The translations under genes and the position numbers were made by a program. Positions 1 to 24,129 of a stretch of DNA of 64,000 nucleotides are shown here, piece by piece (positions within the stretch are counted from its first letter, which is position 1; every line of letters begins with the position of its first letter). The DNA lies in the NCBI GenBank assembly GCA_944381825.1, contig CALWMK010000001.1, forward strand, positions 13,598 through 77,597. Reading direction: 5' to 3'. The DNA is from an uncultured Clostridia bacterium (GTDB lineage Bacteria; Bacillota; Clostridia; Christensenellales; UBA1242). The notes under the pieces were generated by a model. That model searched no databases, was not told the origin of the DNA, and worked only from the letters and a program-made list of their open reading frames with translations.

Positions 1-3000
1 TCAAATGCCTCAACAACAAATTCAATCACATCGCCATTAAAGCAATTTGTTCTACTAGCATCATATTTTATTAAAATTTCATTATTTTGTTCTAAAATTT
101 GGTTTTTTGAAAGTCTTATGCCATTAGAAAGCATTGTTGCTCCTGCTTTTACATTCCCCATTTCGTCTATCCACGAAACAATAGCATTTAATTGACTATT
201 AGAACTATTCCATTTTATTTCTGCATAATCAAACTCAGAATTCAAAGGGAAAAATTCAATTTTTAAATAATTAGGTTCATTAGGAGATAAATAGTTAGTT
301 GTTGAGCCTCCACTTCCAATTTGAAGGTTACCATTATTGTCAAATAAAGGAAATGAATTTACTAAAATAGTTTTTAGTGTTTGATTTATCACATTTACTT
401 CTAGTCCATATTCACATTCGTTTTTTGCTTTAAAATTAATAAAATATTGACCTTGATAATTTTCATTGAAGCCTTCATTGAATTTGGATTCAAAAAAATA
501 ATTAATTTTATTTAATTTTAATATTTTATTTAAAGTTATTTCATCTCCTTCATCATTTTTTAAAGCAAACTCAATTTCTTGACCAATTGCTTGTTGCAAA
601 AGCATTGAAACATCAAGATTTTGTGATTCATAATAATTAATTGAAGAGATATCTGAAATATTATGTTCGCTTACAAACAACAGTCCGTTTAAAATATATA
701 AATACAAATCTTTTGAATTATCTTCATATTTTAAAGTTAAAATAAATTTTCCATTATCTTTAAAATTGCTTGCAACAGAAATCTCGTAAACCCTATTTTT
801 TTCCTTTACATCAAAATAATTGTCTTTTTTGTAATTTTCATTAACTTTTACACTTGAAATCTCAAGCTTTTCATTAAAATCATCTGTAATAACTTCTAAA
901 TTTAATAAAAATCTATCATTTGGCTCAATATTATTATACATTTCAGTTTCACTTGAAATTTTTTCAGCACCCTTTTTATGTTCAACATTAAAAAGCAGAT
1001 TATTATTATATAAATTATCTGAAACATAGTAATTATTACCATAATAAATTGAATATTTTGCGTTGATTGAGAGACTTTGCATGCCCGCATCTCCCACTGC
1101 TTCTAACAAATAAAGTTTTCCAACTTTGTTAAAATTCACATGCTTTTCAGAAGTTATCTCATCTTCAAATAAAACAATTTCATCACCTGAAATAATTTCA
1201 ATTGTATATCCATTAATTACAATATCATTGGCAAAAGTTTCAATTTTAATTGGAATATTTTGTCCTTCATATATTGTTATTGTTTTTCCAATTGTAATAA
1301 GGTTTTCTTGTGTTGTTAATGAATTTAAATACAAATTATAACCATCGACAGCTCCAACCACATAGACAAGAACATCAACGCTATATTTTTGATTCAAATT
1401 AGATATTACCTTTATTCTTGCAATCCCTCGTCCATTTACAAATAATTTTCCGTCATTTGTAATACTTATAATATTATTATCAAAAGAAATTAAACTAACT
1501 TCACCATCAACTTCAAAAGGTAATTCTTGAAGATTAAAAGAATTCAGTTTGTCTTGTTCAACACTGTTTTTTGCCTCATAAAAATATGTATAGGCCATGA
1601 TAGTTGTCGAATTATTACAATTTAAAGCATAAGGAGTTTTGCCATCAATTTCAATTTGACTTATTAACACTTGTGAATCTTTTATTTCAAATTGATTTTG
1701 ATAAAATCCATTTGAGCCTCCTAACAATATATCACCAAAATAATTATCATAATTTGCAATTTGATTAGGCTCAACAAAAGTTCTCGAAATAAAGGTTTGA
1801 GCTTTCAAGCTATCATTGGAAATCTCTCCATCATTTTCTGTTGCACCAAAGATTTGCACCTTGGCATTTTTAGTGTAAACATAAGGGTCATCATCTGTGC
1901 CTGTACCATTAACATTCAAACCAAAATTTTTGGAATAAATCAAACTTAAATCAACTCCCAAAGATGAAGCATCTTCAATATTTTGCAAAACACTATTTGT
2001 AAAAATTGCAGATTTTTCACTGAAAGCAACCAAACCTGCTAAATATGCTTCCTTTGCAAAATCGGTAATTTCACCCAAACTTCTGACTTTTACTCTGCTT
2101 ACAATTCTATCGGCAAAACCACTATTTATTCCCAAAACTCCACCCAAGTAATTGTAAGCTTGATTAGCCAACTCAATTTTACCAAAGGCTTTTAAATAAT
2201 TTGAGTAATTATTTTCATCAAAGTTTATTGCGCTAGCAAAAATTCTTCCATTAGTGGTATTTTTACCAGCAATAGCACCAACAGCAAAATTGGTATTTTC
2301 GGCTGAATTTGGAACATTTTTTTCACCATTAATGCTAAGATTGGAAATTACATAATAATTTTCATCATTATAAAGCTTTATCCTTGCATTTTCAATCCTT
2401 TCAATACTACCATTATTGATTCCAACTACCCCTCCAAAATAGCTTTGATTTTGTTTGCCTTGCATTGCATAAAAAGTTTGGAAAACCGAATCTTTTAAGG
2501 TTATTAAATTAAAATTATTGTAGGAATAAATTTTTTCCAAAAATTCATAATTTCCACCAATATTGGTAGCAATCTTACCATTATTTTCTCCCACAACTCC
2601 ACCAACAGAAATCATTTCAGTTGTGAGAACTTTAATCATACTATTTTCTAAATTGACATGAACATTTTGTAAAGTGCCAAAATTTTCGCCAGCTATAAGT
2701 CCAACTTTTGCATTTTTATTAAGTTCTAACTCAATTTTTCCACTTATTTGTAGATTGGAAATTACACCAGTGTTTTTAGTAAATAGTCCACCATATAAAA
2801 TTCCATCAATTTCTTTTGTGCTTTTAATATTCAATCCTACAATTGAGCCTTGTCCAACACCATTAATTGAACCACTAAATTCACCTAAAGGTGAAAAATC
2901 AATTGCACTTAAATCAATTTTAGAGGTAATCATATAATGTTTGTCAAGACCAGACTCAGCTATGTTTATCAGTTCATCAGCTGTTGAAATCATAAAAGGC

Positions 3001-5828
3001 GAATTTTGGTTCCCATCTCCAACTATTACAGGAATTTTTAAAGAATTATTTGGATTTTCAATAGTATTTGAAATACTACTCTTTGGAATAATAATTAAAT
3101 TACCAGTTCCACCACCATTATTTGCATATGTAAGTCTAACACCATTATTATTTATTGATTGCAACGAAACAATATTCCCAAAAGAATTAGAGCTTGGCTC
3201 AAATAAAAATATTAAGTCTTTATGAATAGCATCTTGAGGTAGAATATAGGTATATAAGTCAACAAATTGATGTGTAGGAGATAAATAAATTTGAGGGATA
3301 TAATTAGAAGTTCTAACTTCGCTAACTTGTACATATTTTTGCGGAATAACTTTAAACGAAGCTACATAAATTTCATTAAAATATTTAACACTTGCATAAA
3401 TATAGAATTCTTCAGGCAAATCCTTTCCAGAATAATCTAATTCAAACTCTCCAGTAATTAAGTTATAAGAGCCTAAATTTGTAACATATAATATTTTTTC
3501 ACCTGCAATGTAAGTATGCGGTTCAGAAGCTGATAATGAAATATAAACATTGGTATCTGTCAACAAATCTATATTACTATTAATAGAACCAAGTAAATTA
3601 GATTCTTTTGACAAATTTTTATAATAATAGCCTAGGTCACCATAGTTATAAAGTGAAATACTGCTTTTTTCAAATTCCACTCCTTCAAATGGTATATAAG
3701 CTCTTACATCAAGTGAACCTGTAAAGTGGTTTTTATCAAATTGTTCATCACCTTGCTGAGGTGTGATTAATTGAAAATCGTCTACAACTTTTACAACAAT
3801 TGAGTAGTCCAACACCTTTCCATCAAATCCAGCTTTGTCACATCTAAGATTAAGCATTAAATTATCAAGCCTTACATTTTCATTGTCCACTGCTTGAATA
3901 TCTAAATTGTATAGTTGTGTATTTAAAATATTATAATCTTTTGGTTCTGTTTTTAAAACAAGTTGCAAATTAGATGTGTAATTGTCGTTTTCTAATACTA
4001 ATCTTGTATCTAAAGCTGTTAAATTGCCATTATAATATGTTTTATCCGAAATATATGTTGAATTTTCTTCATCTACATCTAGATTTAATGACTGTAATTT
4101 TTCTATAACAGTTATTTTAAAATCTCTAAAAACACCATTTGGAAGTACAATTCTCCATGTACTTTCACCAGCTTTTTGTGGCATTAAATCTAAAATCAAA
4201 TGTTTTTTTGAATCAATTATTTCGGTTTGAATTGGATTAATTTTAATATCTATTGTATTGATTCCATTGGAAGAAATACAATAGATTGATGAGTCTTCTA
4301 TAAAAGCATTCACATCATTAACATAGAAACCCTTAAATTGTTTAGTTCCTTCTTCTAAACTTATAAATAATCCATCATTTGAGTTGTATTTATCTAAAAT
4401 TGCCAAAGAATTTGCACCAGTTTTTACAACATATGAAATGCTAATAGAAATATCTTCATTGTTGTCAATGCCTTGCGCTTCTCCCCAAATCAATTTGAAT
4501 TTTAATGTTATTTTTTTCCCGTCAGTTTGATTTATTCCTCTTGCAATAATAGGAAGATTGGTATTTGTAATTTCAGTTGAATTACCATTTTCAAAAATCG
4601 ACAAACCTCCTATTGTAAAATTAATATAATCAGTCACATTTCCAGCAAGTCCATCTTCTAAAACTGCCGTAACTTCAATCTTGTCAAAAATTGAGTTATA
4701 AGGAAGAATTGACAAATTTTGCACTGATTTAATAGTAGAATAAGCTCCATCAAACAAGGTTTGAATTTCTGGAGATTCAGAGTCATTTAATAGAATTTGG
4801 TTAGGAGCCTCATCAACAATTAATGAAAATGTCCTATAAATTGCATACTCTTCGTAGCCATAATAATATACCTTAAAAACAATCGTAGTTGTACCACTAT
4901 TTAAACTTTGAAGTTCGAAATCAAAAATGATATTGTCATTTTCAAAATACGACTTTGAAATGTCGAACTCGGAACATTGCACAATTGAATTAGAGAGAAC
5001 CATTCTTTCAATTCTTATTTTTGAGTTGTCGCCACTTTTTATAACATTTTTAAGTATTTTTCTAGCAAAATCTTTTCTGTTTGAAATAAAATGTAAGTCT
5101 TTGTAACTTGTTTGAAGTGAATCTTGTTCTTTTGAATAAACATGTTCTGGCTCATCTTTCACATCATAAATTTCAACGCTGGATATTTCGTCGATGATTT
5201 GAACTTCAAATTCTATTGTTTTTGATAGAAATGGAGATTTCGCTGTCACCTTAACCTTATTTGTATCAAAATTTTTAGGGTCAATTTCAGTTATTAAGTT
5301 TCCTTCTATATCAAAAAACTCAATTTGTGTTTGTGAAGTGTTTTGTGGTGTAAATTTAAAGAAACTTGATGATAGCATAAGTTTTTTTGGATTGTTTTCG
5401 CCCTTTACTGCAAAAAGATTTACATCATCTTTAAGAACAAAATCTTCAATTGCCAAAGATACATTAATTTCAATTTCAATGCTTTTATTTCCCTCTTTTG
5501 TTGTTGCTTTTAAAAAACAAGTTCCAAAAGCCAAAGCATTAATTTGAACTGATGCGGTCGAATTATTTTTATCATAATCGGTTACTTGAGCAGTAATTAT
5601 ATTTGCGCTTGGACTTAATACAATTTCTCCGCTTGCACCTTTAGGCATGTCAGAAACTGAAAATTCAATTAAAGCAGACTCACCAACAGCTAATGATATC
5701 GAGTTATTAACAAGATTATTTCCACTTGCTGATATTTTCATATTCTCATATGTTTTAGTACAAGCAGAGAAAAACAAGCTTGTAAAAGCTAAAATCATTC
5801 CCATTAAACAAATATACACTTTTTTCAT
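1..5828 (-). CDS. Giant surface lipoprotein, paralog of the adjacent 6,042-aa protein. The window holds the N-terminal 1,942 codons; the 3' end lies beyond the left edge.
   Basis: ATG at 5826-5828 with a GGGAGA RBS 5 nt upstream. Hand translation of both ends is in one frame that stays open to position 3. The ORF is absent from the track only because no stop falls in the window, and no competing long ORF is listed here. The N-terminus MKKVYICLMGMILAFTSLFFSAC is a signal peptide plus lipobox Cys. GLUG-like turns are GGVVGINNG (about 2410-2436) and GGVLGINSG (about 2110-2140). Confidence 0.8.
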   Translation of the reverse strand, partial: MKKVYICLMGMILAFTSLFFSACTKTYENMKISASGNNLVNNSISLAVGESALIEFSVSDMPKGASGEIVLSPSANIITAQVTDYDKNNSTASVQINALAFGTCFLKATTKEGNKSIEIEINVSLAIEDFVLKDDVNLFAVKGENNPKKLMLSSSFFKFTPQNTSQTQIEFFDIEGNLITEIDPKNFDTNKVKVTAKSPFLSKTIEFEVQIIDEISSVEIYDVKDEPEHVYSKEQDSLQTSYKDLHFISNRKDFARKILKNVIKSGDNSKIRIERMVLSNSIVQCSEFDISKSYFENDNIIFDFELQSLNSGTTTIVFKVYYYGYEEYAIYRTFSLIVDEAPNQILLNDSESPEIQTLFDGAYSTIKSVQNLSILPYNSIFDKIEVTAVLEDGLAGNVTDYINFTIGGLSIFENGNSTEITNTNLPIIARGINQTDGKKITLKFKLIWGEAQGIDNNEDISISISYVVKTGANSLAILDKYNSNDGLFISLEEGTKQFKGFYVNDVNAFIEDSSIYCISSNGINTIDIKINPIQTEIIDSKKHLILDLMPQKAGESTWRIVLPNGVFRDFKITVIEKLQSLNLDVDEENSTYISDKTYYNGNLTALDTRLVLENDNYTSNLQLVLKTEPKDYNILNTQLYNLDIQAVDNENVRLDNLMLNLRCDKAGFDGKVLDYSIVVKVVDDFQLITPQQGDEQFDKNHFTGSLDVRAYIPFEGVEFEKSSISLYNYGDLGYYYKNLSKESNLLGSINSNIDLLTDTNVYISLSASEPHTYIAGEKILYVTNLGSYNLITGEFELDYSGKDLPEEFYIYASVKYFNEIYVASFKVIPQKYVQVSEVRTSNYIPQIYLSPTHQFVDLYTYILPQDAIHKDLIFLFEPSSNSFGNIVSLQSINNNGVRLTYANNGGGTGNLIIIPKSSISNTIENPNNSLKIPVIVGDGNQNSPFMISTADELINIAESGLDKHYMITSKIDLSAIDFSPLGEFSGSINGVGQGSIVGLNIKSTKEIDGILYGGLFTKNTGVISNLQISGKIELELNKNAKVGLIAGENFGTLQNVHVNLENSMIKVLTTEMISVGGVVGENNGKIATNIGGNYEFLEKIYSYNNFNLITLKDSVFQTFYAMQGKQNQSYFGGVVGINNGSIERIENARIKLYNDENYYVISNLSINGEKNVPNSAENTNFAVGAIAGKNTTNGRIFASAINFDENNYSNYLKAFGKIELANQAYNYLGGVLGINSGFADRIVSRVKVRSLGEITDFAKEAYLAGLVAFSEKSAIFTNSVLQNIEDASSLGVDLSLIYSKNFGLNVNGTGTDDDPYVYTKNAKVQIFGATENDGEISNDSLKAQTFISRTFVEPNQIANYDNYFGDILLGGSNGFYQNQFEIKDSQVLISQIEIDGKTPYALNCNNSTTIMAYTYFYEAKNSVEQDKLNSFNLQELPFEVDGEVSLISFDNNIISITNDGKLFVNGRGIARIKVISNLNQKYSVDVLVYVVGAVDGYNLYLNSLTTQENLITIGKTITIYEGQNIPIKIETFANDIVINGYTIEIISGDEIVLFEDEITSEKHVNFNKVGKLYLLEAVGDAGMQSLSINAKYSIYYGNNYYVSDNLYNNNLLFNVEHKKGAEKISSETEMYNNIEPNDRFLLNLEVITDDFNEKLEISSVKVNENYKKDNYFDVKEKNRVYEISVASNFKDNGKFILTLKYEDNSKDLYLYILNGLLFVSEHNISDISSINYYESQNLDVSMLLQQAIGQEIEFALKNDEGDEITLNKILKLNKINYFFESKFNEGFNENYQGQYFINFKAKNECEYGLEVNVINQTLKTILVNSFPLFDNNGNLQIGSGGSTTNYLSPNEPNYLKIEFFPLNSEFDYAEIKWNSSNSQLNAIVSWIDEMGNVKAGATMLSNGIRLSKNQILEQNNEILIKYDASRTNCFNGDVIEFVVEAF

Positions 5829-5899
5829 ATTTTTCTCCCATTTATGCAACCGAATAATTATTATAAAGCATTAAAGTTTTGTCGCAATTTATGTATTTA

Positions 5900-8800
5900 T
5901 TAAAGCAGTGAAACTCCCGAAAATGAACCGTCAAAACTAATAATCATATCTTGGTTTACTGGAACTTGTTTTAATTTATTGTCATAAAAATTTAAGAGCA
6001 TATTTTCTGTTGAAAGAGAGTCACCAATAGCATAAGGTTTTTTGTAGTCACCATTTAAAATTGCAGTTTTTACACTATAAGCAAATTTTTGTGAATATGT
6101 TTTTCCATCTATTTCACTAATTACCCAAGCAGTATAATTTCCCTCACTTGCTGTTGAAAATTGAACAATTTGATATTGTACTGGATTCAACTCTGTTGCG
6201 TAACCGTTTTCATCTACAAATGAAACCGTAGCCATTAATTCTTCACCAACGAGATATTCAGATTTTCCAAGTTCAATTATGATTGTGTTTATATAAATCA
6301 TATTCTCACCATCTGTAGGGATTTTAAAGATTATAATGTTACCAACAATATTTCCATTTCCAGCATTAACTTGTCCACCTTGATTGTAGGTAAATATGTT
6401 TTCGTTTTCTTTATACAAAATATTATTTAAAGTATTACTGCTTATTGCTCCAGCATTTCCTCCAAAACCACCAGCATTTATATTTTTATCCATTCCGCCA
6501 TTACCTGCGATAATTATTCCAGTGTTGCTAGCGGTTTTAACTTTACCATAATTTGTTAAAACACTTAAATTCGTTTGTCCATTTTCATAAATATATCCTG
6601 ACATATAATTGAAACAAACAATTCCTGAAGCATCACCACCATTTCCTACAATGATTCTATCATCGTCTGAGTCACCTCCAAATCCACCAATAACCTTTCC
6701 AGTGTTTTGACAGCCATTTAAAACTGCTTGTGAATCAATGTTAACATCGATGAAGTTCAAATTATCATCAACATCATAAACCATCGAATTGTAAACACAG
6801 ATTCCAGCAGCTTCTCCACCGTCTTGTGAATTATAAACTAAGGTTTTATTAGGAGAATTGTCTATTATTATGCCAGAAATAATATTGCCCTTTCCTCCAT
6901 TTCCAGCCTTTATTTCTCCAGTATTGATGGCATTGCTAATTGAACCCGCATTATAAACTGCAATACCAGCCGCATTCCCGCCTTTTCCTGCTGAATAAGC
7001 TTCTTTTAATTTTAATGTGTTATCTTCCAAAACGAAATAACTGTCACGACCATTTCCAGCGCTGACTTTTCCTCTATTATAAGTTTCCTTTGCATTACCA
7101 TCGTCTTTGATATCGCCAAAATTATAAACACAAATTCCACCAGCATCAGCACAAGCTGTTATTGTCGCTTGATTTGTACAATTTATAATTTCACCTCTAT
7201 TAGCTAAACAAATTCCACCAGCCAAACCAGTTTCATTATTAATGATGGCGGTATCTTTTGTAACACAATTTTTTATTATTCCATAATTTACTTGTGCAAA
7301 AGAGGTTTGAGTTAAAGTGCCATCAATTTTAAGGTCAGTCAAAGTCCCATAATTATTTTTAACAAAAGCATAATATGCATTTTGAAGTCCCAAATCATTA
7401 ATTGAAACTGCAAATTTTATACTACTGTCAAGACCCATTTTTGACCCATCAAGAGTTCCATAGAAATTGTTTATTACAAATTCATTTTCATTTTTTTCTA
7501 TAGAAACATTTTCCGTCAATTCAAAAACAAAGTTAATTGATTCATCACATTCATTAACCAAACTAACAAAATCATCGAAATTGTTGCGATTAATTTCAAA
7601 TGGTGCATTATTAGTTCCAGCACCTTCAAATGGTGTTTGTCTTTTAAAATTAATTAAGTTGTTTGAAAGTGCTTTAACTTTAAATTTTGCCATGTAAAAT
7701 TCTTTATAAAAATCACTTTGAATATTAGAACGATTATCCAAAACACAATTATTAATCTTTCCTCTTTCTCCCAAATCATTTGTTAACAAATCAGAACCTT
7801 GTGTAATTTTATCCTCTAAATTGTTAATTTCACAATATATTTTTAAGTTATTAACAGTGCCATTAACTCTTTCAAATAAGAATATGTTTCTTCCACTACC
7901 ACTATAGTAAATCGTTTTTCCATTTCCATCAATAGTGCAACCTTCTGGAACTTCCATTGCTTCTTTCAATGTTAAAATATCATCTGTAGTGCCAAAATCA
8001 TTTTGCAACTGTATTGTTGTGAAATCTTGATAAATATCATCTGGGTTTGCATTATATGCTTCAAACAAACTCAATGCCAATGAAAGTTCACTTAAGCTTT
8101 CAACTTTGCAAATTTTATTCTCAATTCTAAGTGGAGATGTGCTATATCCAATCATATTAGAACCATCAATATCTAATCTTAATGAGTTAAGTTCAGAAGG
8201 TTCACCTGCCAAACCAAATGATTCATATTGTCTGAAATTAAAATCAAATGAGCAATTAATAATCCAATCTATAAGGCTTTGTCCTATCGAATCTCCAATA
8301 TACCAAGAAATATTTTGCTTAAAGTTTCTAGAGTTTTGTCCATTTTGTCCATTTGATGAGCCTGTTCCACCTTTTCCACCAGAAGCCCAAATTTGTCCAT
8401 TATAATCTTTATCAAGCATTCTTCTATCATTTACGCTTTGTCCAATTTCACCACTAGTTGCAACAAAATTTTCTTTATTTGTTGAAGTTAAATATGAGAA
8501 AGCCAATGCTTGAGATGTATTTCCATTGTATCCATTTCCACCAGCGCCACCGCCACCGCCAGCATAACCAACATCACAGGTGCCAATAAATTGTCCCCAT
8601 AATTGACTATTTATATAAAGTTTGCCTGCTATAGAGGCTCCAGTGCCCAAATTTATGATTCCATTGCCTCCTCTTCCACCAGCACCACCTTGACCAGCCA
8701 AGCCAGGTAGTTGATAACTTTCAAATAGGTAATTCCCATCGTTGTAAGGAATATTAATATTAGATACACCAGCAACTCTTCCAACAATAACTGAACCACC

Positions 8801-17800: not shown

Positions 17801-20800
17801 TGTAGAGAAAGCTTTAATTTTTAAATTAGTTCCAAAAATTGTATCACTTGAAACACCATTTCCAGAAAAAATGAAGTTAAAATATGGATTTGCAATAATA
17901 CTTCCGTCCGAACTTAAAACCTTTGTTGAAGAGCCATCAGCATTGACATAATATAAATTATTTAAAAAGTTTTTATAATTAATATTTGCATCATCCTCAT
18001 GATAATTTAAAATATAATATTTATTAGAATAAGGAATTTCCTCTCTTAATAAATAATTATGTTCTTTAAAAGTTGCAACTAATCTATTTAAAGAATCAAT
18101 AGATTCAAGAATATTGTCATCCACAATGTTTTGCCCATTCCACATTGTGGTTTCAAAATTGAAGTCTAAGCCTTTTTCTATTCCAACATAGGCAGATAAA
18201 ACATCTGAATTATTATCAAGTGTTATGTTTTCAATCAAAAAATCCACCACAACAATTTTAACACTTGTAGAAACTTCAACCAATGTTCCATCAACCACTT
18301 TTGAAGCGACAGCTTTTACATAGAAAATTGGTTCCTGCATATTTATGAATCTTACATCTTCAGAAACAAATAATTTGCATGTATAAACTTTGACATTTCT
18401 ACTATCGTCAATGATGCTTGTCATTTCTCCTAATGAAATGCCATAAAGTTCTCCTTCCCCTTCCACAAATGTAGTTAAACTCGAGATTTCTTGGTCTTTT
18501 TGAACGATAGCTTGAAGAGTTGCACTTGTGCCTTTTGCCATTACAATTTGTTCTTCATCATTTATTGTTAGTTTAGCTTCAATAATTGGTCTACAAACAA
18601 CATTAAATGTAGATTCTTTTACAATATCACCAGAAGATTTTACAACTTTAGCAGTAATTGTAAAGATTGTATCAATGTTTATCATTGAAGGAATTGTCAT
18701 TAAAACAAAATATTCTCCTATGCTCGAATAGCCAAAATTTTGTTTTAAAATTCTAATTCCATTATCAATTCTTACAAACCCAATAGTATCTCTTAGATAT
18801 CCTTCATTATTGGCTTTCAAAAGTTGCAAATATATATTATTAGAATCAACAGAATTGCTTGTAATTTCAATATATTCGAAGTTGGCTTGATGTGGGTAAA
18901 TGTTTATTTTTAATAGATTACTCTGTCCTGGAGAAACCACATTATTTGGTTCTTGATTAAAAATATAACCACTCTCTTTTTCCCAATTTTTGTAAGTATG
19001 ACTAGAAAAGCTTATTTTTTCTACAAAAAGCGAATCTAAAATAAGTTTTACATCGTCACATACTTCTTTTACACTGCTTGCAGAAACATTTATGTTGAGT
19101 TCCAAACTGCCAAAGTCTAAAGACCAAAATTCTTGTAACATTTTTAATCTTGTCTGTAAAGTAATTTTATAATATTGGTAATTGTCTAGTTCATTATAAT
19201 TCTTGACAACCCAAATTCCATTTTCTAAAACTTCGTATTTTTTTACTACAGAAGAGATTTCACCATTTTGTCCTTCAAACATTGCATTATAGGAGGTGTC
19301 ATAGTTAAGCATAGAAGAGTTGTATTTATCGGTAATTAAAATATTTAAAAAGTCATCTTTATCATCGGTATAAAGCACACTTTCAAAAATTATTTCATCT
19401 TTTGGTGTAAAATGACTAAAATCACTATAGTTTATGTCAATTGAATCGGCACCTTTGAAAGTCGAAACTGTAAAATAATGTGAAAAGTTTTGCGTTAACA
19501 AATCATTAACAGAGTCTTCTTTGTCCTCACACAAAATATTGACATCGAATCTAATAGAAGATTTTTCAAAACTAGTTGTATCAATAACATGTTGATTTGC
19601 ATTTGAAATAACATATTTTTTAACATTATCGTCAAATTTTATTTGTAATGACTTGTTTTGTTTTAGTTTAATAACTTTACCAAGAGCAATTTTTTGGTCA
19701 TCTAAACTTGTAAGAATATAATCTGTTGAATTCTTTTTAATTCTCAATGTGGAATTATCGTTAAGTTTTTCGCCATTATAAATAATTTCAAAATTTGAAA
19801 TGTTATAAATTACCTCAATTTCATATTCGGTTTTCAAACTAAAGTCGTATTTAGAAAAGACCGAAATTTTAACCTTACCAACTTTTTCTAAAATTAAGGA
19901 GTTATTTGTAATTGTTAAAACATTTGCATCACCACTTGTAACAGAAACTCTTATTCCATTAGCATTTTCAACTCCAAATAATTTTGTAAATGGAATTGTA
20001 TTCCAGCTTCTAATCACCGCATCTTCACTTGCAGTTGTTGTAATATTATCCTCTTTTTCAAAGAACATAAAAATTGCCAATTTGTTATTTTCATCAACTA
20101 GCACTTGTCCCGATTTAGATAATTTTAACGAAACCAACTCGTTTGCATCATTTTGTGAAATAGTTGAAAGATAAGGATATCCATCATTTTTATTTGCACT
20201 TACTTTCCAAATAGAATTAGAACCAATATTAATTTTGCCATTATAGAAACTTGCGAAATCGCTTTGGAAAATATTTCTTCCTTCACTATAATATTTTTTT
20301 TCATTATTGATAAACTTGTAGTTTTGAGTGTCTATTTTCACTTCAAAAATATAACAATTTTGGATATTCTGTGCTGAAACCGAACCATCATTGCCCCATG
20401 ATTCATCTGTTAAATTTCCAACATTGGTTTTGGCAAAACAATTGAAGATTTTACCCTTATTTTCTCCAGTTAAAGCACCAACCTCTGTTCCAACTAAACA
20501 ATCTTGATCATGATAATTATAACAATAAGAATTTGATAAAGTGGCTTTTTCACCATTTATTCCGACTAACCCTCCAACAATTTCACCTTTAATAGATGAA
20601 GCTAAGGTGTCATTAAATTTATAAAATTCTACCTGACATAAATTTATTACTCCATTATTTTCACCAGCAATTCCACCTACAATTCCAGAAGAATCTATTT
20701 GACCAAAAAAACAACTCTGAACAATGGTTCCATTATTTTTTGCAACCAAACCACCAACTAGAACATCAACATTATTGGAAATTTTGCTTGGCTCAAACTC

Positions 20801-23800
20801 ATTATTTTTTAAAAAGGTATCAACAATAACATTGTTAATTTCTCCATAGTTTGAATTTGCGACAAATGCTTGTCCGCTGATTTGCCCCATGACGATTAAG
20901 TCTTGAATAATCGCATTAGAAGCCAAAATATCAAATATTGTTTTTGTTGTTGTTATAGTTTTTGGAGATTGTCCTTCTAAACAGCCATAAAGTCCTCCAC
21001 TAAAAGCCCTGGTTTGCCATGTCGCAGGAATTTCTACATCTTGCATTAAAGTATAATGTAGTGTGGTATCCTTAATTTCATTTAGGTCATTAATTCTAAT
21101 AGAAGTAGTCCTTGATTTTCCATCTGCAACAACTATTCTTATTTTTTTAGACACACCCAATTTATCTTCTAAAACTGGTTGACCTTTTTCGTCAGATACA
21201 TAAGCATCTTGAGGCGCAACAATAATATATCCCGCCCCTCCATGATTTGCCTTAATTAATCCAGTAAAACTGTCAATTGTAATAAAATCAGAAGATGTAG
21301 AAAGATCGGAAACAAAACCAAACATTAAATTTTTATTAAAAGCAGATAGATTTTCTATACTTGCGTCAATCTTAAAAGTAGAGTTTTGAGTTAATTCTAA
21401 ATAAATTCCCTCTTCCTCGTTGACATTGTTTAAATTTATCCCATTAACCCTTTCTGCACTTTTTAAAAAAACTCTTACAGTCACATATTTTTTAACACCA
21501 AATTCATCTACGATAAAGGTAAAATGACCATCATTGCCATAAGTTCTTGTTTCATCTTTCTTACTAATCATAGAATTGGCTACAACTGAAAGAATTCCAC
21601 TATTTTGATCAAAATTCCAAGAAAAATAATCGCCATTATCACCAAGATCACCATCTTTACATTCAATGGTGTTATAAGTTGCTGGTAATTTATTTTCATT
21701 TACAGAAATTTTAACAGAAGCTTTTGCCAAGTTCTGATTATAATAACCAACAGAGTCTAAGGCAAATAAATCGATAGATGAAACTGATGATGTGAATGAA
21801 ATAACTGGGTTGTATATTTCTACAAAGAAATATTTTTTAACAACCTTATCTTGTAAAGAAGTGTATTGATATAAACCATCTTGTTTTACTAACTCTTTCC
21901 CCTTTAAATTAACCTCAACCCAAATCTTTCCTTCATGCAATGCTGAAAGTTGAGAAAAGATTTGTAAATTGGTTAAATTTAAAAATGAACAATTTTCGCT
22001 ATAATTACCCAAAGCAATTTCATCACCAAAAGTTGAATAGTTTGCATCATCTTTTTCACTTTCTAAAAATCTATAAAAAACTTCAAAGGTTGCATTTTGA
22101 GTGTCAAATGCTATTTCAGATGAATTGCCATTTGTTATTGCTACAGCAAAATCTGAACCAGCAACATTATCATACTTTAAATATCCAATATTATCATTAT
22201 TTTGAGGAGATTGAGTTGTTATTCTAGCATTGTCAGTTATTGGAACTATTAAATTTACTGGTGCATAAATTCTTCTGCCATTTCCGCAAGAAATTTCAAT
22301 AAAACCTACTTGATTTTGTTTTGTTGCTTTTGAAGTTAAATTGACTGCAAAAATCTTTCCAATTATGACATTCTCAGAATCGAGCACTTCTGAAACTGAA
22401 AAAATGTCACTTGTAGTAAAATCACCTTCACTTTCAACAGTAAAGTTTTCTAATTTTACATTTGCAGGCGCAACATAAAAGTAAATGGTTTCAGTGGATT
22501 GTTTTGAATTGTCAATGTAAAATTTTGGCTCAATAATTTCATTATTTTCACCAGCATAAAATTTTAATTCATTTGCTCCTTCATATAAATTTAAAAGAAT
22601 TGAACACTCTATAACTCTTTCAGTCCCAGAATAAAAGTCTGCAGAAAAAGAGGAAGTTATCAAAATCTCTGCTTGTTCTGTTGAAGATTGTTTTGCTCTA
22701 ACATAAAAACCTTGACCATCTTTAATTTCATAGTGTCCGTTTTCATTTTTATTAAATGGCTTACCCTCTTCGTTTAATATTTCTATTTTATCTAGGTCTT
22801 GAGAACTTAAATATAAAGTTTTATATTTTTCTAAAACAGTTGTAGGAAAAGTTTGCACTTCGATAAATCTGCCATAACTATTAGCATAACTAGAATAAAT
22901 ATCCATTTCTATAGATTGGTTATTTGTAACAGATGTACCATCTACAACTATACTTTTTACAATATCATAGGAAAAGAGTTTAGTTTTAAATTCTTGTGTA
23001 GAATAAAGATAATTATAGCCATCATACTTTAAATCAAAATATAGATAACAATCATCTCCGACTCTATTACCAGAAGCAATTAAAACATCTAGTCTTAAGG
23101 AATTATTTGTTTTTGTATATGTTTTTTTAACTATAGTTGCAAGAGTATCATTAGTAATTTTCGGTTCGATTATGATTTCTTTGTCAGTATATGGAACCTC
23201 CAAACTTACAATCGCTTGTGCAAAATCTTCGTCATTGTGAGCAAGATAAATTGATGGAGTTTCACCTTGTGTCGGCTTTAAATTAATCTCACCTTGGGTT
23301 TGTTCATATGTAAGTTTAAAGTTATCACTTTCAAAATTAAAAGGAGATAAAATATCAAAATCAAGGTTTAAAGGAGCAATGTTTCTGTTTGTAGAAGAAA
23401 CCGAAATTGTGATTGTTTTCAAAGAATTAGCGCTTTCATCATCAACATTTAAATAATAATTTCCATCTACAAATGATAAAGATATGCCTTCGTAATTATT
23501 TAACAAAGCTAACTCCACATCTTTTTGCAAAGTATTTGAGGGATTAAAATTGACATATTTAGAAACATCAATTAAATTATTTTCACCTCTTAAAACATAA
23601 GGTTGAATTGAAAGTTTTTGAGTTAGGCTTGTTATTGGTTGAACAACATCAACATGTATTTTTGTTGAAACATTATTTTCAAGAGTTTGAACTTTAACAT
23701 CTAAAGAACAAGGAACAAGGCCCTTAATTTTTACTTCTGTTTTTCCTTCGCCCAAATAATTCGTTTCAACAATGCTAACCTTATTTGAATCTGGAGAGAA

Positions 23801-24028
23801 AAAAACTGATGACAAAACCTTTTTGCTACCAGAAACAGTTGCAATCACAGACACGGTGTCATCTTGGGTTACGCCAAGATAAATAGTAACATTTGACTTG
23901 TCAACTGTAAGTTTCATGTTTTTATATGGGTCAGTACAAGCAACCAGCAAACTTGAAAAAGCAAAAAACATAGCAAAAAGAATTACTACTAATATTTTCG
24001 GTCTCACTCTCTCAATTTTATATTTCAT
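5900..24028 (-). CDS. Giant (about 6,042 aa) N-terminally lipidated surface protein with Ig-like arrays, repeated GLUG/beta-helix cassettes, a glycine-rich block and C-terminal Ig-like domains.
   Basis: The track shows one uninterrupted ORF at 5900-24052, starting from a GTG. I prefer the ATG at 24026-24028, which lies 5 nt after GGAGG. The N-terminus MKYKIERVRPKILVVILFAMFFAFSSLLVAC is a signal peptide plus lipobox. Recurrent GLUG-type turns include VGGLVAKNNG, AGFVINNNG, VGGIVGFVKG, IGGIVGLAKN, FGGLVGINTG, YAGGLFGLQ and AGGICVYNFG. There is no LPXTG tail. Confidence 0.85.
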   Translation of the reverse strand: MKYKIERVRPKILVVILFAMFFAFSSLLVACTDPYKNMKLTVDKSNVTIYLGVTQDDTVSVIATVSGSKKVLSSVFFSPDSNKVSIVETNYLGEGKTEVKIKGLVPCSLDVKVQTLENNVSTKIHVDVVQPITSLTQKLSIQPYVLRGENNLIDVSKYVNFNPSNTLQKDVELALLNNYEGISLSFVDGNYYLNVDDESANSLKTITISVSSTNRNIAPLNLDFDILSPFNFESDNFKLTYEQTQGEINLKPTQGETPSIYLAHNDEDFAQAIVSLEVPYTDKEIIIEPKITNDTLATIVKKTYTKTNNSLRLDVLIASGNRVGDDCYLYFDLKYDGYNYLYSTQEFKTKLFSYDIVKSIVVDGTSVTNNQSIEMDIYSSYANSYGRFIEVQTFPTTVLEKYKTLYLSSQDLDKIEILNEEGKPFNKNENGHYEIKDGQGFYVRAKQSSTEQAEILITSSFSADFYSGTERVIECSILLNLYEGANELKFYAGENNEIIEPKFYIDNSKQSTETIYFYVAPANVKLENFTVESEGDFTTSDIFSVSEVLDSENVIIGKIFAVNLTSKATKQNQVGFIEISCGNGRRIYAPVNLIVPITDNARITTQSPQNNDNIGYLKYDNVAGSDFAVAITNGNSSEIAFDTQNATFEVFYRFLESEKDDANYSTFGDEIALGNYSENCSFLNLTNLQIFSQLSALHEGKIWVEVNLKGKELVKQDGLYQYTSLQDKVVKKYFFVEIYNPVISFTSSVSSIDLFALDSVGYYNQNLAKASVKISVNENKLPATYNTIECKDGDLGDNGDYFSWNFDQNSGILSVVANSMISKKDETRTYGNDGHFTFIVDEFGVKKYVTVRVFLKSAERVNGINLNNVNEEEGIYLELTQNSTFKIDASIENLSAFNKNLMFGFVSDLSTSSDFITIDSFTGLIKANHGGAGYIIVAPQDAYVSDEKGQPVLEDKLGVSKKIRIVVADGKSRTTSIRINDLNEIKDTTLHYTLMQDVEIPATWQTRAFSGGLYGCLEGQSPKTITTTKTIFDILASNAIIQDLIVMGQISGQAFVANSNYGEINNVIVDTFLKNNEFEPSKISNNVDVLVGGLVAKNNGTIVQSCFFGQIDSSGIVGGIAGENNGVINLCQVEFYKFNDTLASSIKGEIVGGLVGINGEKATLSNSYCYNYHDQDCLVGTEVGALTGENKGKIFNCFAKTNVGNLTDESWGNDGSVSAQNIQNCYIFEVKIDTQNYKFINNEKKYYSEGRNIFQSDFASFYNGKINIGSNSIWKVSANKNDGYPYLSTISQNDANELVSLKLSKSGQVLVDENNKLAIFMFFEKEDNITTTASEDAVIRSWNTIPFTKLFGVENANGIRVSVTSGDANVLTITNNSLILEKVGKVKISVFSKYDFSLKTEYEIEVIYNISNFEIIYNGEKLNDNSTLRIKKNSTDYILTSLDDQKIALGKVIKLKQNKSLQIKFDDNVKKYVISNANQHVIDTTSFEKSSIRFDVNILCEDKEDSVNDLLTQNFSHYFTVSTFKGADSIDINYSDFSHFTPKDEIIFESVLYTDDKDDFLNILITDKYNSSMLNYDTSYNAMFEGQNGEISSVVKKYEVLENGIWVVKNYNELDNYQYYKITLQTRLKMLQEFWSLDFGSLELNINVSASSVKEVCDDVKLILDSLFVEKISFSSHTYKNWEKESGYIFNQEPNNVVSPGQSNLLKINIYPHQANFEYIEITSNSVDSNNIYLQLLKANNEGYLRDTIGFVRIDNGIRILKQNFGYSSIGEYFVLMTIPSMINIDTIFTITAKVVKSSGDIVKESTFNVVCRPIIEAKLTINDEEQIVMAKGTSATLQAIVQKDQEISSLTTFVEGEGELYGISLGEMTSIIDDSRNVKVYTCKLFVSEDVRFINMQEPIFYVKAVASKVVDGTLVEVSTSVKIVVVDFLIENITLDNNSDVLSAYVGIEKGLDFNFETTMWNGQNIVDDNILESIDSLNRLVATFKEHNYLLREEIPYSNKYYILNYHEDDANINYKNFLNNLYYVNADGSSTKVLSSDGSIIANPYFNFIFSGNGVSSDTIFGTNLKIKAFSTGEQNMKFVFAYLTPDGNKHEITYNFTISITTYTDEDKPVQISTAEDFYAIANEAQAQDYILMNDLELTLHTPFDTSKINSFDGNNRVITIRSFDLTQRQGSSIQLALFSSVTSNSILKNITVNYYHLNNLVVDTSVFKTVELAGFAISNAGIITNCHVLAIETNSNLPSPIGAVGLSLAYNIGQIGGEVSSTLAGFVINNNGVITNSRVGGEEFEVARATSVSSLSQGMHELNNFTLSAQGNIVGFVYSNNGKISSSFTNKIDIKNDSAAGLNTISAGFVGFNTSGEISLSYSKGAYADYQELKTTGTAISTNSIGAGFVYNNNSKISNCYSNIMLKDVSNTSGRNSAGFVYVNSGNIEQCYSSSLIENSKTTQMDFNGVDDYGNLLNTGTITNSYYYNPKSSDSITSDMEETYSSGVLRVDTLVSSDIFYGFSFASVNSQDGVWTMTSSRGPELISANEIAVSSRYILTADDGNDFMFVYEEGYEYGSSKNPILIRNASEFNEVFGKSNSSAIKEYYNLSNNTVFGNYRMINDIDLSELVEEQEEYKLSSSNMSLYGGVFEGNNMTIDNLELAAPANLQQQSFGLFSKIENNAIFKNTNITLIGINAGNIQNVGAVAGILSDSKIVNIKLSAVYGTTGNVLGQNVVGGIVGFVKGNSSLINLSVSDIVVTADFYNENIERQPYIRFAENSQIDNNALSYAGGIAGIVDIYTPDFFADIVYSADRIMSFSNIASLKTLGSFQVKGATAGGVLGYLGLNSACRDLSVEVSRTGNNFNQKITAYKFAAGGLIGENYGDVTQSKIEHSSEIQDLIENNVSAYYNKVSDNKGYMDLFSTSANENYSPIFVGGLIGQTFSGNISNSYSKINVYSNAAFVGGLIGGIGDYFYSTNSPKNLGRNYFDQVYAFGDVYSTKADGLVGGLFGFVEYIGESINEENSIATIIINGANAVNFFNREYEDNDFELNGNIYNLKNIYDFYASTFYNGTIVRADEYDKSVALMSLTEDNANESERNKILNYVISSFTVDQKTYEPKRSVYLKTNNNNIKTINSKLESFNSITNPSVDGNYIDVAFRNNNWDLEKWERKTNWLLPKIVFTVSSSVYYIRTSSDLYLMEKYPDKTFIIIGTGLSENGEKVYVDCSDIEQLDIKNFRGVLKGYMPDRSSTTYPQDGKPLFGLKNLNLSDALITNASNGAVFSDFILLDCHVNNYDDTTSTKASAILVNSAQGVVFRNLIIENCYINTINSNAALVVGDAENSLFDTIDINNFLGRDMVSQSSFKDSNVENLNSALVVAKVSGFRTTNIKNVIITNDFKNYGINVNPTNLQSNNTTVNSGLIVGCAEGGIVKFDYEIKDNEKDSNFIINGEVMIFVANNALNDKIEQNINIGSLAGIISATSFNINGFTDIGKCSLNVAGAFKNSNIGGIVGLAKNSFSIKNNNKNYNFNIYNNIIYSDTGTTGISNLGGIIASTEGSFTASNVQVSADNACQISSIKETNVGGVIGYARKNLNIDGVIISKNLKFEIKSTNLVGGNFGGFIGKFDYIEEQTSSRSKITKSYSYLNFDLTNFNGNVNFGGAIANVQSRKTDLNILEISESYFGNDLEFNTFKNMEYNLGGILGYCFGFIGESDTVSGKSISLNNNIAYGNIIQKVNSIENVEVYAGGLVGQGTANTNLQNNIVLTTIEQLQIPTTTKNHVKALVANGAYGINSFENFYCSQITLCTDSYLNEHFENGNTKLSTNLSYSSILERILNAEELINGEINNGSDKFGHKLKPFELTNFIDLTDIKDESNSLASGKKIYYRLVEDINYVDNSLNINNKNFALIGDGKTIAISNKEGRIFDEIPQNSFVSGISILVPSQIYMPDSYEKFQVRDEKEVLIAEYKNIYAPLSAVNNGIVFACAIKGQPNEFSDIDAKLDSRAKIFANSQYFGGLVGINTGLISDCLTEIELVNIAKTTKVEENGKLEINESITSGFVAVNYGFIANSYSGGTINAPNGTIYAFNYDAIKLDGENEKVFGDVRSCFSIAQACNSSSEKLESSTIKYNSFVFGAGADKTCFYDVYATGVSDGSQAIKLITSQMNNGFEINENDLVKNDLQNLNSFKNELSKINFASYITDNFVFEGLNNYGYPSFGNSYISEEYNYLKIEGINANQQILVGNIGVLRLAAISALNNLNNPSNNRKNIVLINNIKVTSDMGCVNDIEFKPTDVYNFDVIEEITNVNIDGNNQSISGIKIGSNSIPFEIDKQYFGIFTTIRNCDIANLILSEGNVIVNTEEANNYYVGTLAGRLDGVVLNNVKNLGMNVKAQSSRTIYVGGISGYVSSSTIQDVTNSASVVSTTLEKSENICYAGGLFGLQEDTFVTKCDNQGAIIAGSNSATNAFSAGITADVKDNRRTSNIENCINFGLVTSLVQDFEEITNEYTDLDLNGGIIEFSKNIEIYVQDEYALYYTGLDISAGSDKGFTSLKNIGSAYENATEPLQTLEQMQRKVAITFAKTDNYGFSNAISNNYNANNCFNNGKVESTEGQKIVKFEVYNQQIIPDQTGFIYLQIQPYKQWSIMDATAMNSYLSEDYENRTQVHALSQNFRYTMDKTERTPLKGIASNQVDIYGYEPREDFVLSYKKAFNNGMPIFEDSANFSLGDGNTGIDLERLKEFLTDDAISYLQKEHNLNSNTISFDYKEFESIEIEDENPSNIGDGSKENPFLVQNEKQFLYALKYANSMILDKNYLSLGTAVKVNEKFAGLLFGNDSLVSFETQGQVSLFNNIDKTGEIENLKILYLNYGASDASPLSNFNYGSIKDVTTFGTIGYKKTISNGKVVEEKLSDENQHFVSGLVQTNNGVINSSNNYMLLFGTSGKNGNNLGENGISANFLAGIAGETTGNILNCYSFGSFVGGNGGNGRYGKDGESGKYANIENNRSAENGTNGGNGGHGGNASVIGGVVGLINVEEKNINVSGDNFGIVISGQGGAGGNGGNGGSGGDADFLMHTFNYEILPAGAGGAGGAGGNGGSVIVGRVAGVSNINIPYNDGNYLFESYQLPGLAGQGGAGGRGGNGIINLGTGASIAGKLYINSQLWGQFIGTCDVGYAGGGGGAGGNGYNGNTSQALAFSYLTSTNKENFVATSGEIGQSVNDRRMLDKDYNGQIWASGGKGGTGSSNGQNGQNSRNFKQNISWYIGDSIGQSLIDWIINCSFDFNFRQYESFGLAGEPSELNSLRLDIDGSNMIGYSTSPLRIENKICKVESLSELSLALSLFEAYNANPDDIYQDFTTIQLQNDFGTTDDILTLKEAMEVPEGCTIDGNGKTIYYSGSGRNIFLFERVNGTVNNLKIYCEINNLEDKITQGSDLLTNDLGERGKINNCVLDNRSNIQSDFYKEFYMAKFKVKALSNNLINFKRQTPFEGAGTNNAPFEINRNNFDDFVSLVNECDESINFVFELTENVSIEKNENEFVINNFYGTLDGSKMGLDSSIKFAVSINDLGLQNAYYAFVKNNYGTLTDLKIDGTLTQTSFAQVNYGIIKNCVTKDTAIINNETGLAGGICLANRGEIINCTNQATITACADAGGICVYNFGDIKDDGNAKETYNRGKVSAGNGRDSYFVLEDNTLKLKEAYSAGKGGNAAGIAVYNAGSISNAINTGEIKAGNGGKGNIISGIIIDNSPNKTLVYNSQDGGEAAGICVYNSMVYDVDDNLNFIDVNIDSQAVLNGCQNTGKVIGGFGGDSDDDRIIVGNGGDASGIVCFNYMSGYIYENGQTNLSVLTNYGKVKTASNTGIIIAGNGGMDKNINAGGFGGNAGAISSNTLNNILYKENENIFTYNQGGQVNAGNGNIVGNIIIFKIPTDGENMIYINTIIIELGKSEYLVGEELMATVSFVDENGYATELNPVQYQIVQFSTASEGNYTAWVISEIDGKTYSQKFAYSVKTAILNGDYKKPYAIGDSLSTENMLLNFYDNKLKQVPVNQDMIISFDGSFSGVSLL

Positions 24029-24084
24029 CAATTCCTCCGAATTCAAATACACCGTTAATTTAGTGTAAAGAATATTTAAAAATA

Positions 24085-24106
24085 TATACTCTCTAAAGAG
24101 AGTATA
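24085..24106. promoter_or_regulatory. Perfect 22-bp palindrome (10-bp arms, 2-nt centre) overlapping the -10 and start region of the giant-gene promoter; candidate operator.
   Basis: TATACTCTCT-AA-AGAGAGTATA read directly from the sequence. Confidence 0.5.
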
Positions 24107-24129
24107 AATAAAATAATTAATTAAGTCAA
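24101..24129 (-). promoter_or_regulatory. Putative sigma-A promoter of the giant gene: TTGACT, 17 nt spacer, TATACT.
   Basis: On the minus strand the -35 TTGACT is at 24124-24129 and the -10 TATACT at 24101-24106. The -10 lies about 73 nt upstream of the ATG. Confidence 0.45.

Follow-up and report, generated by a model that had tools for sequence, protein, structure and literature searches.

Giant putative lipoproteins in a fixed chromosomal slot of uncultured gut Clostridia: a candidate pair of attachment fibres

Introduction

What would a gut bacterium do with a lipoprotein of about 6,000 residues? The question is raised by a stretch of 64,000 nucleotides (nt) from an uncultured Clostridia bacterium (GenBank contig CALWMK010000001.1, positions 13,598 to 77,597; this whole stretch is called the window below), in which two head-to-tail minus-strand genes, g1 and g2, take up 24 kb; the complete locus is ~28 kb long. 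Their products have masses of 663 kDa and 365 kDa, respectively, share an isoelectric point (pI) of 4.6 and together comprise 9,332 residues. As described below, g1 is a real gene that is under purifying selection along its entire length, and both products are predicted to be lipid-anchored surface proteins. We propose, with confidence and doubt about evenly balanced, that they are a pair of lipid-tethered, wall-spanning attachment fibres whose core is conserved in the lineage and whose distal part varies.

The Two Genes Are Intact in Independent Assemblies

The original prediction, which was made from the letters of the window, placed g1 from 24028 to 5900 and g2 from 5828 to beyond the left edge, separated by a spacer of 71 nt (5829-5899), and the open frames agree with all of this. 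The g1 frame is listed as 5900..24052(-), 6,050 amino acids (aa), from an upstream GTG; the ATG at 24028 sits just 3' of a GGAGG and gives 6,042 aa, and gene callers in other assemblies give 6,042 or 6,043 aa. The g2 gene has its ATG at 5828 with GGGAG ahead of it, and the frame is open as far as base 1 (1,942 codons). The expectation that this second gene spans at least 5.8 kb is correct as a minimum: the complete gene measures 9.87 kb and encodes 3,290 aa, according to a database protein (P0088) that is 100% identical over 100% of the window fragment.

The GC content is ~29% throughout the window. Random codons of that composition would include ~8% stops, and by simple arithmetic an open frame of 6,042 codons would have p ~e^-510; a chance origin of the g1 frame is therefore excluded. 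Because g1 has 20 TGG codons and no in-frame TGA, the standard bacterial code (code 11) is adequate.

A look-up of the neighbouring 229-aa TtcA-like protein recovered the same locus from many assemblies, including an NCBI metagenome-assembled genome (MAG; GCA_964323845.1, a 204-kb contig), an ENA assembly and several Logan assemblies. Seven independent metagenome assemblies from different samples have the same uninterrupted genes with ~99.8% identity. Six of them cover the first 9,797 nt of g1, where each has 17-19 differences from the window and no stops or indels; the seventh (L036) covers the last 9.9 kb of g1 plus all of g2 and differs at 30 of 15,828 positions. Thus, the stops, frameshifts or chimeric join that would have spoken against such a long gene are absent from all seven. 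Neither self-BLAST (E < 1e-3) nor Tandem Repeats Finder (TRF; nothing relevant) detected internal repeats in g1, so the usual cause of mis-assembled giant genes is absent. For the same reason, we reject the earlier idea that the locus varies in its number of cassettes.

Selection points in the same direction. The g1 protein is 74-88% identical to that of a congener (L007), and the ratio of nonsynonymous to synonymous substitution rates (dN/dS) is 0.05-0.38 in every 300-codon block over all 18 kb (dS ~1.3). Anyone wishing to see in g1 a mis-assembled region, or a decaying pseudogene that is still open by chance, could point out that every source is a metagenome assembly, with no isolate or long-read genome among them. 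However, the frame is identical and unbroken in seven assemblies from different samples, g1 has no repeats, dN/dS is well under 1 over the whole gene, orthologs of similar length exist in 29 species and chance openness has the minute probability given above. We consider the artefact to have a negligible probability and to be refuted for practical purposes.

The two genes are related to each other. BLASTP aligns three segments in the same order: g2 residues 2-171 with g1 11-173 (30% identity), g2 708-1208 with g1 736-1237 (24% identity) and g2 1845-3045 with g1 1696-2955 (24% identity, E 1e-40). By these alignments, g1 and g2 are collinear paralogs with 24-30% identity, as had been proposed from their N-termini, and g2 is in effect the first half of g1, minus the long distal extension.

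Both Proteins Have Lipoprotein N-Termini

The signal peptide and lipobox that were originally noted on both proteins satisfy PROSITE PS51257. This rule looks for a positive n-region, an uncharged hydrophobic h-region and the lipobox [LIVMFWSTAG](2)-[LIVMFYSTAGCQ]-[AGS]-C, with the Cys at 15-35; the residues concerned are Cys31 in g1 and Cys23 in g2, and both proteins have K/R within the first seven residues. AlphaFold2 models g1 residues 10-29 as one helix. The peptides ACTDPYKNMKL and ACTKTYENMKI, on which the relationship was first based, are present in the respective translations, and the motif is conserved well beyond the two genes, with a family consensus of C-[GT]-D-[PK]-Y-x-[ND]-[ML]-K from the lipobox Cys onwards.

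A lipobox Cys that varied among orthologs would have weakened the case. Instead, C31 is invariant in an alignment of 13 sequences (g1 plus 12 giant homologs), and a canonical n-region, h-region and lipobox occur at all 29 loci found in the species scan described below. Among 24 long homologs, counting full-length g2, 20 have the lipobox; the remaining four comprise one miscalled start, one fragment and two general GLUG proteins whose similarity to g1 is confined to aa ~1090-1200.

The signal peptide is the sole hydrophobic stretch in g1 and likewise in g2, so that neither has another membrane anchor. The mode of anchoring had been described as unlike that of LPXTG proteins, autotransporters or RTX adhesins, and indeed, there is no LPXTG motif, no RTX array and no Pfam autotransporter match at E <= 0.01. 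Neither lgt nor lspA, the genes for the processing enzymes, is in the 64-kb window, although no dedicated search for them was made. Together, these features predict that g1 and g2 are lipid-anchored surface proteins.

Domain Architecture and Fold

Two segments of g1 were modelled with AlphaFold2. The model of residues 1-640 (8 homologs; mean predicted local distance difference test score, pLDDT, 82.6) has the signal helix followed by ~six all-beta domains, and Foldseek matches it to arrays of multiple immunoglobulin (Ig)-like domains, the surface (S)-layer protein SbsC and invasin with a probability of 1.00. The model of aa 2095-2700 (6 homologs) has a pLDDT of 69.8 overall and ~85-95 in the first 380 residues, and it displays the short-strand pattern of a right-handed beta-helix. 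Its Foldseek matches include the Streptococcus pneumoniae IgA1 protease (6xja_P, probability 1.00), a Bacteroides 'putative IgA1 protease' (BACOVA_03286, 3N6Z, probability 0.99) and the binding region of a serine-rich repeat protein (SRRP) from L. reuteri (5nxk, probability 0.6-0.8). The lowest E-values belong to PL6 alginate lyase, fucoidan lyase and pectate lyase/pectin methylesterase folds; the lyase TM-scores are just 0.16-0.18.

The beta-helix modules can also be read directly in the sequence, since they start with P-x-x-I-x-T...[EDQ][FL] and end with W...GYP.L. A hidden Markov model (HMM) of the coil unit, trained on g1, locates clusters of GLUG-like coils at g1 residues 1090-1221, 2217-2463, 2679-2922, 3960-4041, 4899-4941 and 5577-5850, and at g2 residues 1011-1227, 2336-2534 and 3012-3096. 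Within g1 aa 3166-4480 it has matches at 3308, 3960-4041 and 4465, and the homolog alignment has an invariant Gly pattern there. The order in g1 would therefore be a lipid anchor, an Ig-like stalk, beta-helix module 1, a beta-rich region, ~eight more beta-helix modules and two small C-terminal Ig-like domains; outside the two modelled segments, the boundaries are inferred (Table 1).

Sequence profiles give a less definite picture. Neither protein, searched whole or as ten 645-aa tiles at E <= 5, has a Pfam or NCBIfam family above threshold, and searches of PDB sequences with single sequences and with a profile found no match. The best sub-threshold Pfam scores for g1 are 19.4 bits for GLUG (cut-off 20.5) and 15.1 bits for Big_3 (cut-off 21.2); other g1 tiles score 10-12 bits against GLUG, and the whole-protein scans gave nothing. 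Thus, the suggestion that g1 contains GLUG domains stands at the level of the fold, given the Foldseek probability of 1.00 to the IgA1 protease, and fails in g1 by sequence (19.4 versus 20.5 bits). An ortholog of g2 (P0091) scores 34.7 bits against PF07581, which is above the Pfam threshold. By profile score, then, the wider family touches PF07581 while g1 itself remains below the cut-off.

A Family Restricted to Uncultured Gut Clostridia

An exhaustive HMMER search with g1 residues 1-1200 against 1.84 billion representatives returned 81 representative matches, which include family members, fragments, shorter relatives and general GLUG proteins, the last of which align only with the beta-helix module 1 stretch of g1. 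Fourteen of the matches are giants of 4,198-5,963 aa with 29-37% identity. For 11 giants, BLASTP gives one collinear high-scoring segment pair over g1 aa ~10-4450 (28-38% identity); after ~4480, similarity to g1 is only patchy (e.g., P0001-P0004). Word-indexed homolog searches found no match to the N-terminal 1,300 aa and only fragments with the core profile; they returned nothing longer than ~3,300 aa and so may miss giants.

A profile of residues 2095-2700, run against one genome per GTDB species, found 29 loci with open reading frames (ORFs) from 3,562 to > 6,617 aa. All are in MAGs labelled uncultured Clostridia, Christensenellales or 'Christensenella sp.', and their titles or isolate names suggest that the samples came from chicken, goat, buffalo, yak, rabbit and human (Hadza, UMGS). 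The databases name the proteins only 'hypothetical protein', and no paper that deals with the family turned up in the literature that we searched on UMGS1429, on giant lipoproteins and on the GLUG motif. At one locus (L008, 15669-17855, in a Christensenella-like MAG), the giant ORF ends at 4,127 aa and a new GLUG-like ORF resumes ~500 nt later; a frameshift or an assembly error could explain this break, as could a true split of the gene.

Exact g2 peptide patterns are absent from GTDB representative contigs and JGI metagenome contigs, so the window species is apparently outside both sets. One of the 29 loci (L011) belongs to Candidatus Caccopulliclostridium gallistercoris, which its describers assigned to the GTDB family UBA1242 (PMC8035907). 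Genomes of this family are 0.67-1.6 Mb in size, lack most biosynthesis and standard transporters and unexpectedly retain sporulation genes; the organisms are proposed to be partner-dependent and to take metabolites from partner cells by way of unknown membrane proteins (PMC12306168). From its homologs and gene order, the window species is probably in or near this genome-reduced family. The window has a coding density of 92% overall and 0.87 outside the giant locus, and 37 of its 40 predicted genes are on the minus strand; together with spoIIID and the housekeeping neighbours, this fits the UBA1242 picture without proving it. The GC skew is negative over the entire window.

A SpoIIID-family gene is present at 24918-25166 (-), between ttcA and aspS, and such a gene also lies within ~3 kb upstream of the giant in the congener and in seven other related species. 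Its presence by the locus agrees with the published persistence of sporulation genes in reduced UBA1242 genomes.

Chromosomal Slot and Expression Signals

The location of the giants displays a consistent pattern. In 18 of the 29 species, the gene directly upstream of the giant is a divergent ttcA-like gene (50-82% protein identity). In six species, a second lipoprotein that shares the post-Cys motif begins 26-57 nt beyond the giant, and in three distant species rpoB is directly next. The contig that contains all of g2 has the order giant, 71-nt gap, 3,290-aa gene, 326-nt gap and rpoB. Judged by this gene order, the giant and its paralog are in a fixed slot between ttcA and rpoB and are part of the vertically inherited core genome rather than an island.

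The 203-nt intergenic region upstream of g1 is 89% identical in the congener. Since synonymous sites of g1 are saturated between the two, this indicates a conserved regulatory element, and the palindrome in this region (Table 1) suggests a conserved operator or attenuator for the giant gene and/or ttcA. Phase variation, which was considered as well, is not supported, since the upstream homopolymer tracts do not differ in any of the six other assemblies in which this region is covered (L001-L006).

The spacer between g1 and g2 has no terminator-like hairpin, and its folding is no better than that of shuffled sequence (z = +1.6), in accordance with the earlier reading. A single transcript of more than 24 kb, which had been suggested on these grounds, is thus plausible, but it is not the sole option, because the spacer has a promoter-like site, TTGCGA-16-TATAAT (5887->5860, 10/12 match). 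The tight linkage of giant and paralog in the six other species favours co-transcription, possibly with an internal promoter in addition. Probably, g1 and g2 are co-transcribed from the conserved promoter beside ttcA.

The Middle of g1 Is Its Most Conserved Part

Conservation is distributed unevenly along g1. The 13-sequence alignment has 160 invariant columns in aa 2101-3000, a second peak of 30 in aa 901-1200 and none past aa 4500. Likewise, dN/dS against the congener is 0.05-0.09 for residues 1800-3300 and 0.19-0.38 beyond. The invariant residues are mostly Gly, Asn, Phe, Ile and Tyr, that is, beta-helix stacking residues, and about a dozen are charged or His (E2111, D2158, K2194, R2284, R2542, E2577, R2606, R2762, D2785, D2839, H2880 and E2889).

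What Could the Giants Do?

From these features we infer lipidation, surface exposure, a fibre-like geometry, a ligand and a link to partner-dependence, and the attachment fibre proposed in the Introduction would be built as follows. Each precursor would be exported via Sec by its type II signal peptide; Lgt would add diacylglycerol to Cys31 (g1) or Cys23 (g2), and LspA would remove the signal peptide, so that the mature protein would be held at the outer leaflet of the cytoplasmic membrane. Across the cell wall, the N-terminal Ig-like domains would form a stalk of perhaps 30 nm, and the chain of right-handed beta-helices beyond it would form a rigid, acidic fibre that binds a partner surface. 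The ligand would most likely be a glycan, whether carried by another cell, by host mucus or by food particles. Presumably, the conserved core (aa ~2100-3000, which is also in g2) would serve the function common to the lineage, and the poorly conserved distal 1,500 residues of g1 would provide lineage-specific specificity.

Several observations do not sit easily with an attachment fibre. Conservation is strongest in the middle of the protein and not at the distal tip, whereas an adhesin that tracks variable ligands should show the opposite; an enzyme or a structural partner would account for this pattern just as well. Sequence searches of Pfam, NCBIfam and PDB detected neither an adhesin family nor a carbohydrate-binding module, the Foldseek matches extend to polysaccharide lyases, and the beta-helix model is of moderate confidence (pLDDT 69.8) with low TM-scores (0.2-0.4). 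The placement of the window species in UBA1242 derives from homolog identity and synteny, not from a phylogeny.

The mid-protein conservation gives some weight to the view that the giants are surface-tethered machines for polysaccharide degradation. One or more of the conserved beta-helix modules (aa ~2100-3000) would then be catalytic, with lyase or hydrolase activity against host or dietary glycans or against the cell wall or capsule of another cell, be it partner or prey, and the Ig-like domains would be spacers. A core with 160 invariant columns and a dN/dS of 0.05 is far more conserved than a passive spacer requires, the lyase and esterase folds gave the lowest Foldseek E-values, and a preprint links giant genes of other reduced-genome or predatory bacteria to cell-wall degradation (bioRxiv 10.1101/2023.11.21.568195). 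However, Pfam and NCBIfam contain no carbohydrate-active or other enzyme family that matches, even at permissive thresholds, the invariant residues are mostly Gly, Asn, Phe and Ile of the kind that stack in beta-helices, with few acidic, basic or His residues among them, the lyase TM-scores are very low and the highest-probability structural matches (the IgA1 protease N-terminal domain and the SRRP binding region) are non-catalytic. We consider a degrading enzyme unlikely, but worth serious attention. The same conservation, together with the slot, could mean that the cell itself needs the giants as a structural part of its envelope, such as a coat, a substitute for an S-layer or a scaffold that organizes the wall. 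A vertically inherited core gene, kept in a housekeeping slot between ttcA and rpoB even among species that share only 50-60% identity in TtcA, with purifying selection throughout g1 and a highly conserved upstream control region, is what this explanation would predict, and the N-terminal Ig array does resemble SbsC. Against it, Pfam and NCBIfam searches revealed no domain of a kind that binds the wall or forms a lattice, such as SLH or CWB2; S-layer proteins are very abundant and usually have masses of 40-200 kDa, so that a 663-kDa monomer would be a costly lattice unit; and the distal third differs from species to species in both length and sequence, as would be expected of an exposed surface for interactions rather than of a lattice. 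An envelope component is thus, in our opinion, quite improbable, and we keep the attachment fibre as the working proposal.

A bolder version of the attachment fibre can be imagined, and we mention it as a speculation that we would not expect to hold. The giant pair would be the defining cell-contact organ of the genome-reduced, partner-dependent UBA1242-like Christensenellales, a Gram-positive counterpart of the giants of episymbionts in the candidate phyla radiation (CPR) and Omnitrophota. The beta-helix core would grip or breach the envelope of the partner for metabolite uptake, and the ~28-kb locus, perhaps 2-4% of the genome, would be kept because it is indispensable.

Other Features of the Window

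The coordinates of the locus are collected in Table 1, along with those of a phage head/packaging block at 54566-62290 (-). This block is a prophage or what is left of one, and it extends in the direction of the right edge. Three class IIb aminoacyl-tRNA synthetase paralogs are encoded within 11 kb (25272-27113, 30067-31431 and 34659-36140, all on the minus strand). One of these is an aspartyl-tRNA synthetase (AspRS) according to NCBIfam; the other two have only the Pfam domains tRNA-synt_2 and OB-fold and are tentatively read as AsnRS-like and LysRS-like. A tRNA-Leu(CAA) is at 31761-31846.

The gene at 51113-53347 (-) encodes a 744-aa protein with an unusual transporter architecture, in which a TMEM164-family membrane domain is joined to the ATPase domain of an ABC transporter; the gene next to it (49456-51102) matches ABC_tran_2, 'putative ATP-binding cassette'. 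Two further proteins had no match, one of 730 aa (46719-48911 (-); Pfam and PHROG) and one of 323 aa (45531-46502 (-); Pfam).

Table 1. Features of the giant lipoprotein locus and of the phage block; all coordinates are window positions
Feature	Coordinates	Strand	Description
g1, giant lipoprotein gene	5900..24028	-	6,042 aa + stop; 662.7 kDa; pI 4.6
g2, paralogous lipoprotein gene	1..5828	-	First 1,942 of 3,290 codons; remainder past the left edge
Spacer between g1 and g2	5829..5899	-	71 nt; ribosome-binding site (RBS) GGGAG
Upstream control region shared with divergent ttcA	24029..24231	-	Promoter-like TTGACT-17-TATACT (24129->24101); RBS GGAGG
Palindrome TATACTCTCT-TT-AGAGAGTATA	24106-24085	-	Perfect 10+10; overlaps the -10 element; followed by the T-run TATTTTT
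g1 type II signal peptide and lipobox	23936..24028	-	aa 1-31; MKYKIERVRPKILVVILFAMFFAFSSLLVA followed by Cys31, predicted to be lipidated; PS51257
g1 post-Cys motif T-D-P-Y-K-N-M-K-L	23909..23935	-	From N-termini of representative matches and the 29 loci
g2 signal peptide	5' end of g2	-	MKKVYICLMGMILAFTSLFFSA followed by Cys23; from the translation
N-terminal stalk of tandem Ig-like beta-sandwich domains	21104..23917	-	aa ~38-975; ~six modelled in aa 38-600, others putative, from the sequence pattern
Beta-helix module 1	20159..21103	-	aa ~976-1290; GLUG-like coils VGGLVAKNNGTI and VGGIAGENNGVI; C-terminal cap W...GYPYL
Middle region	17699..20158	-	aa ~1291-2110; beta-rich, Big_2-like patterns; putative assignment from translation and conserved columns
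Most conserved core, two beta-helix modules	14534..17698	-	aa ~2111-3165 (2111-2535 and 2566-3165); from AlphaFold2, Foldseek and conservation
Further beta-helix-like modules	10589..14533	-	aa ~3166-4480; GG..G coils every 35-40 residues; moderately conserved
Variable distal region	5903..10588	-	aa ~4481-6042; Gly-rich beta-helix-like modules; two weak Big_3-like C-terminal domains
DUF7934	54566-55588	-	Phage block
Amidase/virion-protein-like ORF	55585-57111	-	Phage block
Major head protein	58003-59244	-	Phage block
P22-like portal	59900-61804	-	Phage block
Small-terminase-like ORF	62000-62290	-	Phage block

Significance

The folds described here, and giant surface proteins of bacteria in general, are already known. 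What is new is a family of 3,300-6,600-residue lipoproteins that have no internal repeats, belong to no database family, occupy a fixed core-genome slot and are found only in an uncultured gut lineage. With it, bacterial lipoproteins would reach several times their previous size range, and the locus shows that internal repetition is not required for a 6,000-residue protein to evolve and persist.

In the guts of humans and livestock, UBA1242 and its genome-reduced relatives among the Christensenellales are widespread; these uncultured bacteria are predicted to depend on other cells (PMC12306168; PMC13155120). The giant locus would be a concrete candidate for the interface at which they make contact with those cells. 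If the genome is within the 0.67-1.6 Mb range of UBA1242, g1 and g2 would account for ~2-4% of it; these are core genes under purifying selection that have so far been annotated just as hypothetical. The conserved core and the invariant N-terminal motif could also serve as probes to find, sort or image the uncultured cells.

Comparison with Known Systems

A number of established classes were considered for the giants and rejected. They are not M26 zinc metalloproteases of the IgA1 protease/Zmp type (no HE..H in g1 or full-length g2 and no peptidase match) or sortase-anchored LPXTG proteins (no LP.TG in either protein and no hydrophobic segment besides the signal peptide). RTX adhesins or toxins were dismissed because g1 has two isolated GG.G.D motifs, g2 has none and Pfam gives no match, and serine-rich repeat adhesins because g2 has no run of at least 5 Ser, Ser makes up 9% of g1 without repeats and the neighbours are ttcA and rpoB. 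A polymorphic toxin would also have a variable C-terminus; however, there is no toxin-domain match, and the next genes are the 3,290-aa paralog and then rpoB. Finally, a phage tail fibre or tailspike finds no support in a tblastn search of aa 1801-4500 against 50,697 phage records, which gave no match, and the locus is chromosomal and syntenic across species.

The large surface lipoproteins and adhesins of Mollicutes resemble the giants in their setting, with a reduced genome, dependence on a host or partner and an N-terminal lipobox as the sole anchor. Those proteins are typically smaller than ~1,500 aa, often repeat-rich and phase-variable and reside on a wall-less cell. In contrast, no phase-variable tract was seen at the giant locus, and the genes for an SLT transglycosylase and for SpoIIID in the window suggest that the cell has a wall. 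Staphylococcus aureus Ebh, at ~1.1 MDa, is likewise a very large, elongated, multi-domain surface protein of Firmicutes; it consists of many similar repeats and has a C-terminal transmembrane anchor, whereas g1 has no detectable internal repeats and is predicted to be anchored by an N-terminal lipid.

Giant proteins are also encoded by Omnitrophota and other small-celled, partner-dependent bacteria, for which two preprints propose a role at the cell-cell interface (bioRxiv 10.1101/2023.11.21.568195; 10.64898/2026.06.07.730766). The very long genes and a presumed dependence on other cells are common to both cases; however, Omnitrophota are another phylum, and no sequence relationship to their giants is apparent among the 81 representative matches.

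The closest parallels are in the fold. The SRRP adhesins of gut lactobacilli (5NXK) have in common with the giants a beta-solenoid surface module on a gut Firmicute (Foldseek 0.6-0.8), and in SRRPs, this module is adhesive. SRRPs are exported by the accessory SecA2/Y2 route; no SecA2/Y2 genes adjoin the giant locus, and the window proteins differ further in having no serine-rich repeats or LPXTG and in being 3-6 times larger. With the GLUG beta-helices (PF07581) of the IgA1 metalloprotease (6XJA) and BACOVA_03286 (3N6Z), the likeness extends to details (Foldseek 0.99-1.00): a right-handed beta-helix with GG[ILV][AV]G.N.G.I..S coils, the N-cap P-x-x-I-x-T-x-x-[EDQ]-[FL] and the C-cap W...GYP.L. 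The differences are that g1 is below the PF07581 cut-off and has no HExxH/M26 peptidase, G5 domain or LPXTG motif, and that its chain has about nine modules instead of one, with an N-terminal lipid as the predicted anchor.

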